From Sphingomonas sp. (GTDB taxonomy: Bacteria; Pseudomonadota; Alphaproteobacteria; Sphingomonadales; Sphingomonadaceae), in contig NZ_JAIERS010000019.1 in the NCBI RefSeq assembly GCF_019746665.1, positions 2,138 to 66,137 on the forward strand: a stretch of DNA of 64,000 bases, written 5' to 3'. The notes under the pieces are model-generated. The model saw only the letters and a program-made list of their open reading frames with translations, ran no database searches and was not told the DNA's origin. The translations under genes and the position numbers were made by a program. Positions 38,577-41,500 of the stretch are shown piece by piece; position 1 is the first letter of the stretch; every line of letters starts with the position of its first letter.

Positions 38577-41500
38577 TCAATCGCTGCGTGAAAGCTCATA
38601 GGCTCCCCAGGCGGCATAGCCGCCGGCGATGTGGAACGCGACCACGCCGAAGATCGCATAGGCGTCGTTGGTCTGCAGCTTCTTGCTGAGATCGGCCACC
38701 GCGCTCGAAAAACGAACAATCGTGTTGCCGATCTTGGCCGAGGTGCCGCCCGCGTTGATCGCATTGCTGGTGAGGTAATTGCTTTGCTGCCAGGCGCTCG
38801 ACAGGGCGCCGGTCGCGGCACCTTTGAGCGCCCCGGTCCATGTCGCCTGCCCCAGGCCCTGATACCAGGGCTGGTGGCCCACCAGATTGGTGACGATCTT
38901 GCTGACATCGCTGCTCGCCGCGCCCGATACCGCGCTGAGCGCCGCCTTGGTGCCGATACGAGCGAAGATCGCGCCGTAAGAGGTGCTGCCCTGCAAGCTG
39001 CTGAGCTCCATCGCCCCGCGCGCGACATTGCCAAGCGCGCTGATCCCGCCGCTCGCCAGGCCGCCGGCGGCGCCCGACAGCGCGCCGATCCCCACAGCCG
39101 AGAAGAAGCCGGCGGCGGTGAAGTCGCGTCCGTGGGTGACGTCATATTGCAGGCCGGATAAGCCCGCGCCGACCAAGGTGCCGCTGAACACGCTGTTGCC
39201 GATCGTCGCGATCGCCGATCCGGTCACGGTTTCGGCGGCGGCTTCGGCGGTGACGCCGGCGGCGACCTCGACCCCCAACTCGGCGCCTTCCGCCCCGATC
39301 AGCGCCGCGTCGACCGAGCCCGCCGCCGCGTCCGACGCGCCGCCGGTGAACGGCGTCAGCAGCAGCCCCGCCGCCGTCACCGCCACCAGCGCGAGGCCGA
39401 TGCCAACCCGCGCCCAGATCGACAGCTGTCCGCTCGGATCGACCGCGATCAGCGGAACGTTGCCGGCGAACAGATAGGGGCTCGGAAACTGGTTTTGCGG
39501 ATCGGGCGCGAGGAAGCGCATCTGGTCAGGATCGTAGAGTCGGGCCTTGAAGTTGTAGAGCCCGACCTCGCCATCCCATTCCTGGCCCTGGAACAGCCTC
39601 GCGAACCCGCTTGGGTCGACGCCGATCGGGATCAAAGGCTGGCCGAAGGGGAGATAGCCATACTGCGCGACCGCACCGTTCGCATCGACCAGCGCCCAGC
39701 AGCTCTGGGTCGGGTCCTTCAGCGGATAGCGCCGATCCGCGCCCCGCAGCACCGCGAGCAGCCCCGCCGGCCCCTGAACATAGGCGGTCCACGCGCCGTC
39801 GATCAGCGTCGCGAGCGGCTCGCTGCTCACGCCGTTGAAATAGGCGATGGTTTGTCCGACGCCGGCGCGCAGCTGCTTCAACACGCGCTGGCTGGCGTCG
39901 CCATAGGCCAGACGGATGCGGTTATCGCCGCGCGCGATCGCCACCGCCATCGCCGTGCAGCGATCATAGGCGAGCGTGCGGCCCAGCCCCTGCGTCTGCT
40001 GGCCGCGCGCGTTGAAGGCGAAATCGGTCGCAACCGCCGTGCCCAGGGTCGCGCTGGCGACGCGGTCGGTGCCGGGGGCGTAAGTGAAGTCGGTCGCGGC
40101 GCTGCCAATCGTCCCCGCCCAGATATTGCCGTTCGGATCGAACTGGGTGATCGCCTGGCTCTGGGTGCCGCTGAGCGCATTGTATCGGCGCTGGCCGTCA
40201 TAGCCGATGGTGCCGTGATAGTCGGCCGCCGCGCCGGCCAGGCTCAGCGTGATGTCGCGCTCGGTCACCGCCTCGTCCGGGGCGTAGGCGAAGCGCATCG
40301 CGAGCGACTGGTCGCCGGTGGTCGCCCGCGTTTCGATCGAGAGCGGATTGCCACGCGGATCGCTGCTCGCCGCGACCGTCCAGGCATCGCCGAGCGCTTG
40401 GATCGCGACGCCGCCATCGGGCGCGTAGGTGAAGCGCCCGAGATCGTCGCCCCCCGGGCTGGTGCCGATCGCGACGACCTTGCCCAACTGGTTGAAGCGG
40501 TAATGGACCGTCGCCACCGGGCAACCGGCGGGATAGTCGATCGCGACCACCTCGTTCAGCGGATTATAGGCATAGCCGATGGTGCCAGCGGCGTCGCTCG
40601 CGCCCGATAGCCGGGTGGTGACGCTCGCCACTTGGCCGTTCGCGGCATAGCGATAGTCGGTGTCGACCGTCACCGCGCCCGCCGCGGGATCATCGCCGGG
40701 CGCGGCGTTATAGCTGGTCGAGCTCGATTTCTGCCCGATCAGGTCGGGATCGCCGCCGTCGCCGTCGAACCGCCAGACGGTGGCGGGCGTGCCGTCCGTC
40801 GGATAGCTGGGATCATCGGCGCGCGCGCGCAGCGTCGCCGCGTCCCAGATGCCCTCGACCACCCCCTGTTCGACCATCCGGTTGAGCGCGTCGAACTTGT
40901 AATAGAGATACCAGGCCTCGCCGCTGTCCATCGCCGGCTGGACGAAGCGCAGATTGCCCGCCGCATCATGAACGAAGCGGACCAGCCCGGCGTCGCTGTC
41001 GGCGAAGCCCTCGCTCAGCTGGAGCGGGTTGGTCGTCGCGACGCGCACATAATCGGCATCGCCTTGCTGTGGGCCGCTGCCGGTGGCGTTGGGCAGCCGG
41101 GTGGTGACGGAGACGACCGGCCCGCTCTCCGCGATCGTGTACGCATATAGCCCTTCGGAGGCTTCGGTGCCCGATCCATCGGCGGCGGCGCTGGTCGAGC
41201 CGACCTGTTGGGTGAGCATGTCGAGCAGGGTCGCTGCCTGCACCTTGGCCGGGCTGATGACGGTTTGGCGCGCGAAGATCGGACCGTCGTCTCCGCCGCC
41301 GGTCGCGCCGTAATCGAACTGCACCGTCTTGCGGTCGGCGGCCGGCACGGTGAGGTCGATCGCGCATTCCTTGCCCGGCGCCCCGGTTTCGAGCGTCACC
41401 GAGCGCGGCGACGGCTCGTAGCGGGTGCCATGATAGGGATAGCCCTGGTCGTCGCTGCGGCGCACCGGCCCGTCCTGCTGGCCGCGATAATAATCGGCGA

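Follow-up and report, generated by a model that had tools for sequence, protein, structure and literature searches.

In a 64,000-nt stretch of Sphingomonas sp. DNA (contig NZ_JAIERS010000019.1, positions 2,138 to 66,137; hereafter the window), a giant open reading frame (ORF) encodes a 2,784-residue protein with an Rhs-associated core near its C-terminus. Judging from profile matches, the product belongs to a conserved family of bacterial Rhs/YD-shell ('cocoon') proteins, the closest relative with a solved structure being the mosquito salivary gland surface protein SGS1. We analyzed the 282 residues behind the core. On balance, this tail is probably the self-encapsulated cargo of the shell, acting either as a payload that perturbs membranes or forms pores in them, or as a translocator or anchor at the membrane; membrane insertion appears to be its best-supported activity. 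Measured against the libraries and literature searched, the cargo domain, its constancy across a family of giant proteins, its three-repeat partner and the lack of a known delivery system are new. The family is of interest chiefly because it gives access, in bacteria, to the unresolved mechanism of SGS proteins.

The Rhs core and the position of the tail

Full-length orthologues of the giant ORF, with 36–79% identity, are present in 20+ loci, and public records name them only 'RHS repeat-associated core domain-containing protein'. In the window protein, residues 2427–2502 matched TIGR03696 at E = 1.5e-14, above the curated cut-off, and DPSGQ, which ends this core, occurs once in the giant ORF (residues 2498–2502). 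Among 13 aligned orthologues, R2464, D2467 and D2498, the catalytic arginine and the two aspartates for self-cleavage, are invariant. In the alignment with SGS1, D2498 pairs with D2729, and the Q2502/L2503 junction pairs with the proposed SGS1 cleavage site, 2733/2734 (PMC9935623); that site reads as DPDGQ/I and aligns with the DPSGQ boundary of the window protein. The predicted self-cut lies between Q2502 and L2503. Because the tail starts right behind a complete Rhs core, at a boundary that coincides with the SGS1 cleavage position, it occupies the cargo position of an Rhs shell.

Across the 13 family members, Pfam found DUF6443 in 11 and RHS repeats in 7; SpvB and TcdB-mid were absent from all 13 at E ≤ 0.01, and RHS_repeat was not detected in the window protein itself. 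Shells matched by the family profile are those of SGS1, teneurins and bacterial Rhs proteins, and these matches identify the protein as an RHS/YD shell. Against the Protein Data Bank (PDB), the profile of 13 orthologues gave E = 8e-82 for SGS1 (8fjp) and 6.8e-69 for SGS4 (9on3), compared with ∼1e-13 to 1e-16 for teneurins, ∼1e-12 to 1e-13 for bacterial Rhs proteins and 3.5e-10 for Tse5. The SGS match spans profile positions 1307–2190 and 2247–2607 (∼1,250 positions). The first 1,300 residues of the window protein had no detectable PDB match; read by eye, its N-terminus (LPGR...LSLQYQS...GLGW) presumably resembles the start of SpvB/TcB, a likeness that no tool returned. At residues ∼1347–1476 (window ∼42500..42900), the family profile weakly matches the carbohydrate-binding module (CBM) of an S-layer endoglucanase (E = 0.003).

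In SGS1, a Tc-like cocoon, ∼230 residues of predicted transmembrane (TM) helices start directly behind the protease site, lie inside the shell and make extensive hydrophobic contacts with its inner wall (PMC9935623). That these helices are poised inside the shell is a prediction that was never functionally tested (PMC9935623). Like SGS1, SGS4 and their Wolbachia relatives WD0512 and WD0513, the window protein is a single giant chain that forms an Rhs/YD cocoon and has no TcA partner. The Rhs-core motif and the cleavage position are the same, a hydrophobic helix stands straight behind the cleavage site, and the cargo position holds a helical, Gly-rich, low-charge moiety of ∼230–280 residues (PMC9935623). 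SGS1 also has a CBM on its shell, comparable to the weak CBM-like region of the window family. Unlike SGS proteins, the window protein has no Tox-SGS domain, which is specific to arthropods, and ends at residue 2784 with a helical domain that has no Pfam match; the hosts of its family are free-living bacteria of many phyla; and a 292-aa partner gene, with no known SGS counterpart, is always present.

A relationship between the cargo as such and the SGS helices was less tangible. When the cargo was compared by hhalign with two SGS fragments, the probability was 0.3% directly and 4.9% via intermediates, neither being significant, and a reconstructed SGS1 tail fragment used as query found no matches in the protein collection. 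In single-sequence and whole-protein searches, the SGS alignment continues beyond the core into the tail. The likeness of the cargo to the SGS helices is one of position and character; homology is not demonstrable.

Earlier work connects SGS proteins with genes of Wolbachia and with endosymbiont toxins (PMC2647948, PMC3482391). Their role in mosquito saliva and pathogen transmission is unresolved, and recombinant SGS is hard to produce (PMC9935623). Bacterial homologues would make it testable whether SGS-type shells release membrane-inserting helices, and what triggers the release. One family member is carried by a culture-collection strain, Sphingomonas kyeonggiensis DSM 101806.

Composition and predicted architecture of the putative cargo

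The initial annotation had described the tail as Gly/Ala-rich, poor in charge and free of cysteine, and this was borne out: it contains 57 Ala, 44 Gly, 27 charged residues (8 D, 7 E, 6 K, 6 R) and no Cys, with a pI of 5.56 and a net charge of –3. The three stretches that the annotation had quoted were all found, at tail residues 3–26, 106–132 and 255–276. Ala plus Gly account for 35.8% of the tail versus 25.4% of the rest of the protein (binomial p = 7e-5), and charged residues for 9.6% versus 16.1% (p = 1e-3). No other 282-residue stretch of the protein is richer in Ala and Gly or poorer in charge, and among 441 stretches of equal length taken from 20 other window genes, none had as much Ala and Gly as the tail. 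The only other window gene with equally charge-poor stretches encodes a DUF2339 predicted membrane protein (1,048 aa, 29307..32453, plus strand, E = 7.6e-85).

The GC content at third codon positions (GC3) of the tail is 0.87, and its dN/dS is 0.26 against S. kyeonggiensis and 0.045 against a near-identical metagenome-assembled genome (MAG). The tail reading frame codes for protein and is subject to purifying selection. Throughout the family, cargo mass is 27–31 kDa, and the cargo is low in charge, virtually Cys-free and usually acidic (pI below 5.6 in 18 of 20 relatives). A mass of 27–31 kDa is within the capacity of a cocoon (PMC6868009).

Three parts can be told apart in the cargo, whose residues we number from the cleavage site (Table 1). 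For each of 20 relatives we scored the best 19-mer on the Kyte–Doolittle scale, with 1.6 as the TM threshold. The helix directly behind the cleavage site (cargo residues 1–27) reaches 2.06 in the window protein and at least 1.78 in all 20 relatives. This is also the best-conserved part of the cargo, with 59% mean pairwise identity; W4, I9, G10, G20, T27, G29 and A30 are invariant or nearly so. The acidic spacer that follows was modeled with a predicted local distance difference test score (pLDDT) below 50 at residues 28–32 and 44–69. The rest is a conserved domain predicted by AlphaFold2 (AF2) to be all-helical. A run with 7 sequences was unusable (pLDDT 39.7), so the model used is that from 27 sequences, which has a mean pLDDT of 65.5 and a predicted template-modeling score (pTM) of 0.41, with pLDDT of 72–94 over residues 80–120 and 150–220. 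Long helices are predicted at 61–98, 104–144, 149–182, 191–224, 230–249 and 255–280.

The most conserved motif of the cargo, SGLQYD.xHGRDFTAxGFF in its family form, contains invariant G91, Y94, D95, G99, R100, F102, T103, G106 and F107, with L92, H98, D101, A104 and F108 at ≥90%. A second polar motif, HQPWYQG, falls at the turn between the next two predicted helices. The model thus points to a pair of long helical hairpins whose turns are polar and conserved.

The claim of a glycine-zipper-like run survived in part. The number of GxxxG motifs is what chance would give (7 observed versus 6.6 in composition-matched shuffles), and we therefore rejected the count as single-sequence evidence. What stands is the conservation of G114, G118 and G122: on helix 104–144, which carries the G114xxxG118xxxG122 face, G112 and G122 are invariant and G114 and G118 at least 90% conserved in alignment A3, and all four are invariant in alignments A1 and A2. 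Similarly, of the two TM-like stretches proposed at the ends of the tail, the first is well founded. The last helix is borderline at 1.41, with a family median of 1.37 and values of at least 1.6 in 4 of 20 relatives; its G269, W273 and G274 are conserved. Helix 230–249 is the only amphipathic one (hydrophobic moment 0.53).

Table 1. Positions of the giant ORF, its parts and the adjoining module in the window (position 1 is the first nucleotide of the window; aa, residues)
Feature	Position	Strand	Basis or remark
Giant ORF, 2,784 aa	38577..46931	minus	ORF call and translation; GC3 0.86
Rhs-associated core, predicted aspartyl autoprotease, residues 2427–2502, ending in DPSGQ	39426..39653	minus	TIGR03696
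C-terminal cargo (putative), residues 2503–2784, 282 aa, 27.4 kDa, pI 5.6	38580..39425	minus	282 residues behind DPSGQ
Cargo 1–27, TM-type helix LSIWARVGIGLALVAVTAAGLLLTPFT directly behind the cleavage site	39345..39425	minus	Kyte–Doolittle and conservation
Cargo 28–75, low-complexity Ala/Gly/Glu acidic spacer	39201..39344	minus	Length varies widely among relatives (alignment A3)
Cargo 76–282, conserved domain predicted all-helical, ∼205 aa	38580..39200	minus	AF2, 27 sequences; dN/dS 0.255
Signature motif SGLQYDVTHGRDFTAAGFF, cargo 90–108	39102..39158	minus	Turn between helices 61–98 and 104–144
Small-residue helix face GIGALSGAAGG, cargo 112–122	39060..39092	minus	G114xxxG118xxxG122 conserved family-wide
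Last helix AYAIFGVVAFHIAGGYAAWGAY, cargo 255–276, moderately hydrophobic, aromatic/Gly-rich	38598..38663	minus	Kyte–Doolittle 1.41
Partner gene, 292 aa, three internal ∼95-aa repeats, each F..DHH..S..A..D.SG	47043..47921	minus	111 nt upstream of the giant gene
AT-rich leader/promoter region ahead of the two-gene module	47925..48150	minus	GC 36–47% versus window mean of 68.6%

These features bear on the idea, also raised in the initial annotation, that the region is simply a disordered linker. For the spacer this holds: residues 28–75 are of low complexity, variable in length and low in pLDDT, and a GC content of 68.6% favors Ala and Gly. As an account of the whole tail, a disordered linker or a high-GC artefact is very improbable, and for residues 1–27 and 76–282 it is refuted, since these are conserved across phyla with invariant motifs, dN/dS is 0.26, pLDDT rises to 94, and the tail is a composition outlier within the same stretch of genome.

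In agreement with the earlier statement that no enzyme motif is recognizable in the tail, neither an enzyme nor a significant fold match came up in Pfam, NCBIfam, PDB sequences or Foldseek. The family libraries, Pfam (E ≤ 1) and NCBIfam, returned a single match for the tail, an IDH equivalog at E = 0.026, which we do not regard as meaningful. A profile of 20 cargo sequences matched only talin (E = 0.02) among PDB sequences, with no SGS, Tse5-CT or colicin. With the AF2 model as query, the best E-value of Foldseek against the PDB was 1.5. Its top matches, though non-significant, are mostly integral membrane proteins (Tim17-like complex I subunits, TIM22/23, FtsX and APH-1), and one family member has an Aph-1 match in Pfam (E = 0.006); we take both as suggestive only, and the former as weak, compositional support. 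The 10-helix channel domain of colicins had no Pfam match at E ≤ 1, and no colicin was among the Foldseek matches. Tox-WTIP, the only pore-type toxin domain in the polymorphic-toxin catalogue, has two helices with RxxR and W-TIP motifs (PMC3482391), and neither motif was found in the window tail.

Conservation, modular relatives and proposed mode of action

A search of 5.8 billion proteins returned only six relatives of the tail, and a profile search of 1.84 billion representatives returned 98 clusters. In the latter, nearly all full-length members have 2,700–2,950 residues and carry the domain at their very C-terminus. When one genome per species was scanned, 26 loci emerged, placing the tail in at least 26 species of many phyla, with hosts that include Sphingomonas, Paraburkholderia, Lysobacter, Frateuria, myxobacteria, Acidobacteriota, a cyanobacterium, Pseudonocardiaceae and a Clostridia MAG. 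The family is widespread but sparse. The window is 96–98% identical to the MAG 'Proteobacteria bacterium SG_bin6' and 79% identical to S. kyeonggiensis. In the near-identical MAG (locus L001, 2299–10636), the giant gene is split in three frames (tblastn 1–1263, 1263–2023 and 2023–2784); these breaks are either assembly errors or the mark of a pseudogene, and the window copy is intact.

At almost every locus, the tail closes an ORF of ∼2,800 codons that aligns with residues 1–2511 of the window protein at 36–48% identity. Mean pairwise identity is 39% for the tail domain and 43% for the shell, the divergences of the two correlate (Pearson 0.79), and their dN/dS is equal (0.26). The proposal that the tail is a payload in the sense of a variable Tc/Rhs cargo therefore had to be abandoned: it is a fixed part of an orthologous family of ∼2,800-residue proteins. 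The family resembles the polymorphic Rhs toxins (Zhang et al. 2012) in combining Rhs repeats, an Rhs core and a C-terminal module. Unlike in those toxins, the module is not exchanged between members, and no immunity gene is adjacent. Because the tail co-varies with the shell, we rejected the reading as a polymorphic, hypervariable toxin tip. An Rhs cocoon with a conserved rather than polymorphic cargo, a new partner and no known delivery machine widens the range of cocoon use.

Comparison with Tc toxins led to a similar outcome. As in TcB–TcC, a cocoon is predicted to enclose a self-cleaved cargo of ∼30 kDa. Unlike the Tc systems, the 64-kb window has no TcA (no ORF is of TcA size), the 13 family members lack SpvB and TcdB-mid, no TcB or TcC chain was among the PDB matches, and the cargo is conserved rather than hypervariable. 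Moreover, translocation through TcA needs a cargo with a pI of at least 8 and no hydrophobic patches (PMC6868009), whereas the window cargo is acidic (pI 5.6) and hydrophobic, with a first helix of TM grade. Delivery through a TcA channel is therefore unlikely, and we rejected the reading as a Tc BC component.

A further comparison is with Tse5 (PA2684 of Pseudomonas aeruginosa), an Rhs effector. Like the window protein, it has an Rhs shell with a hydrophobic, non-enzyme-like C-terminal cargo, and the Rhs cores can be aligned; the cargo of Tse5 is self-cleaved and membrane-inserting (PMC9637101, PMC10684867). Tse5-CT is an experimentally shown pore-forming Rhs cargo, and its shell-mediated delivery has been shown as well (PMC9637101, PMC10684867). 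Together with the TM helices predicted within the SGS1 shell, this gives the concept of a membrane-active Rhs cargo a precedent. The suggestion in the initial annotation of a hydrophobic cargo in an RHS cocoon holds as regards location, directly behind a complete Rhs autoprotease core; as regards newness it does not, since Tse5-CT and SGS1 precede it. Tse5 differs in having ∼1,300 residues, in its dependence on a type VI secretion system (T6SS) and VgrG, and in its immunity gene, tsi5. The window protein has 2,784 residues, and at its locus neither a T6SS or PAAR/VgrG context nor a conserved gene downstream is seen; neither the protein nor its neighbors had a Pfam match to PAAR or VgrG.

The helical module also occurs in other settings. 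The same Rhs core recurs, together with a homologous module (hhalign probability 98.4%, E = 4.7e-15), in two proteins, P0061 (4,035 aa) and P0089 (3,145 aa), and in a fragment, P0054. In all three, hundreds more residues, with a weak OTU-like match, come after the module. This layout recalls SGS1, where Tox-SGS stands behind the helices. The three genes are low in GC, and that for P0061 (L027:1503-13610) adjoins a bacterial transposase. P0086, a 771-aa protein from a metagenome contig, has no Rhs part; it starts with the module, which an OTT_1508-type deaminase and then an acidic tail of low complexity follow. Nothing comes after the module in the window family. Placement ahead of enzyme domains would fit a role in membrane insertion or translocation better than an enzymatic one.

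This bears on whether the ∼205-aa domain is instead a soluble effector, an enzyme or a specific binder acting through its invariant polar residues, with the first helix a mere tether or shell contact. We regard that as unlikely. The domain does have invariant or near-invariant Y94, D95, H98, G99, R100, D101 and T103 and the second motif HQPWYQG, and helices 149–249 are not hydrophobic; the polar motifs YD..HGRDFT and HQPWYQG may thus leave some room for a specific non-pore role. Yet these motifs lie at predicted helix turns, no enzyme family or fold was matched, the domain is Cys-free throughout the family, with very little charge and many small residues, and relatives place it ahead of true enzyme domains.

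The co-evolution of tail and shell, and the contacts of the SGS1 helices with the inner wall (PMC9935623), would also be consistent with a tail that permanently lines or plugs the shell, with no delivery at all. In that case, the protein would act via its surface domains as an adhesin or receptor-like scaffold; teneurins, which the family profile also matches, would be the model, and the weak CBM match on the shell fits such a role. This too seems unlikely, for three reasons. The three self-cleavage residues are invariant in the family, whereas teneurins are without the last Asp of the autoprotease (PMC9935623). A lining would hardly call for a helix of TM grade and an acidic spacer of variable length. 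Finally, the large domains that relatives append behind the module are too big for the shell interior.

Less likely still is an action of the hydrophobic helices in the producer, either as a tail-anchor in its own membrane for display or export or in a holin-like self-lysis that releases the giant protein. A comparable idea has been raised for the hydrophobic C-terminal domain of latrotoxins (PMC3482391), and the window protein has no obvious signal peptide, no secretion system nearby and no immunity gene. But location behind the autoprotease of an Rhs shell predicts encapsulation, as in SGS1 (PMC9935623), and a tail-anchor needs no conserved 205-aa domain.

For the favored reading, a cargo that inserts into membranes, the following scheme can be drawn. 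The shell would fold around its own tail, as homology to SGS1 and other Rhs/Tc shells implies, and the Rhs-core aspartyl protease, with its invariant catalytic residues, would cut after DPSGQ (Q2502). By analogy with SGS1 and Tse5, the 27-kDa, Cys-free, low-charge, all-helical cargo would be stored shielded in the lumen; after release from the producer, contact with a target might then cause it to exit the shell and enter the membrane. Entry would probably be led by the hydrophobic helix at the new N-terminus, aided by the GxxxGxxxG helix and the last helix.

Several findings weigh against this reading. A profile of the cargo alone detected neither the SGS TM region nor Tse5-CT, and Foldseek gave no significant match to a known pore-former fold, with a model of moderate confidence (pTM 0.41). 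Only one helix passes the classical TM threshold; the other long helices, though poor in charge, are neither strongly hydrophobic nor, apart from helix 230–249, amphipathic. The conserved polar set of Y94, D95, H98, R100, D101 and T103 could mark a binding or catalytic site. As for delivery, neither the giant protein nor its 292-aa partner has an obvious signal peptide when the sequences are read by eye, and no recognizable export or delivery system was found near the giant gene.

The partner gene and other neighbors

The 292-aa partner gene adjoins the giant gene in 21 of 21 loci analyzed, with a tandem duplicate in two of them (L015 and L025), and is its only conserved neighbor. Its product had no Pfam or PDB match, and all 43 clusters of its family are 'hypothetical'. 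Ahead of the module, the drop in GC content reaches into the 5' end of the partner gene (window 47700..48150). A single sigma-70-like site (47975..47947) is not above chance. The low-GC stretch points to a promoter region that was acquired horizontally or is under special regulation.

No TcA, T6SS, PAAR/VgrG or immunity-like gene is present in the window. A two-gene module without TcA, T6SS or an immunity gene fits a self-delivering device, possibly directed at eukaryotes, better than an inter-bacterial polymorphic toxin. A more specific version, which we hold only tentatively and rate as possible rather than probable, is that the three-repeat 'DHH' protein and the SGS-like cocoon form a device that, independently of TcA and T6SS, inserts a pore-forming helical module into eukaryotic membranes and in relatives carries appended enzyme domains across, and that the family is the free-living bacterial stock of the endosymbiont and mosquito SGS proteins. 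The combination of no immunity gene, a non-polymorphic cargo and an occasional phosphoinositide phospholipase C (PI-PLC)-like neighbor would fit a non-sibling target, possibly eukaryotes, although this is speculation.

The genes downstream of the giant gene differ between lineages and are mutually unrelated (Hsp70-like, PI-PLC-like and an unknown 460-aa type). In four loci (L008:10770-12272, L009:10624-12126, L011 and L012), the next gene encodes the 500-aa PI-PLC-like protein, which has a Ca2+-dependent phosphoinositide phospholipase C domain (E ∼1e-17) and possibly hints at eukaryotic membrane targets. In five others (L013:10608-11981, L016:10623-12050, L015, L018 and L025), the downstream gene is the ∼460-aa type, which has no Pfam match.

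The flanks of the window encode housekeeping functions (FtsK, LeuRS, MetH, Tol-Pal, IlvD and an ABC-F protein). A 444-aa Hsp70/MreB-like ORF (37036..38370, minus strand) separates the giant gene from that for ABC-F. We rejected this ORF as an immunity or chaperone partner, as it is missing from that place in the 96–98% identical MAG and in all other loci. In that MAG (L001), ABC-F stands directly behind the giant gene and a 94%-identical Hsp70-like gene lies across the module in divergent orientation, which indicates a local rearrangement or a paralogue.

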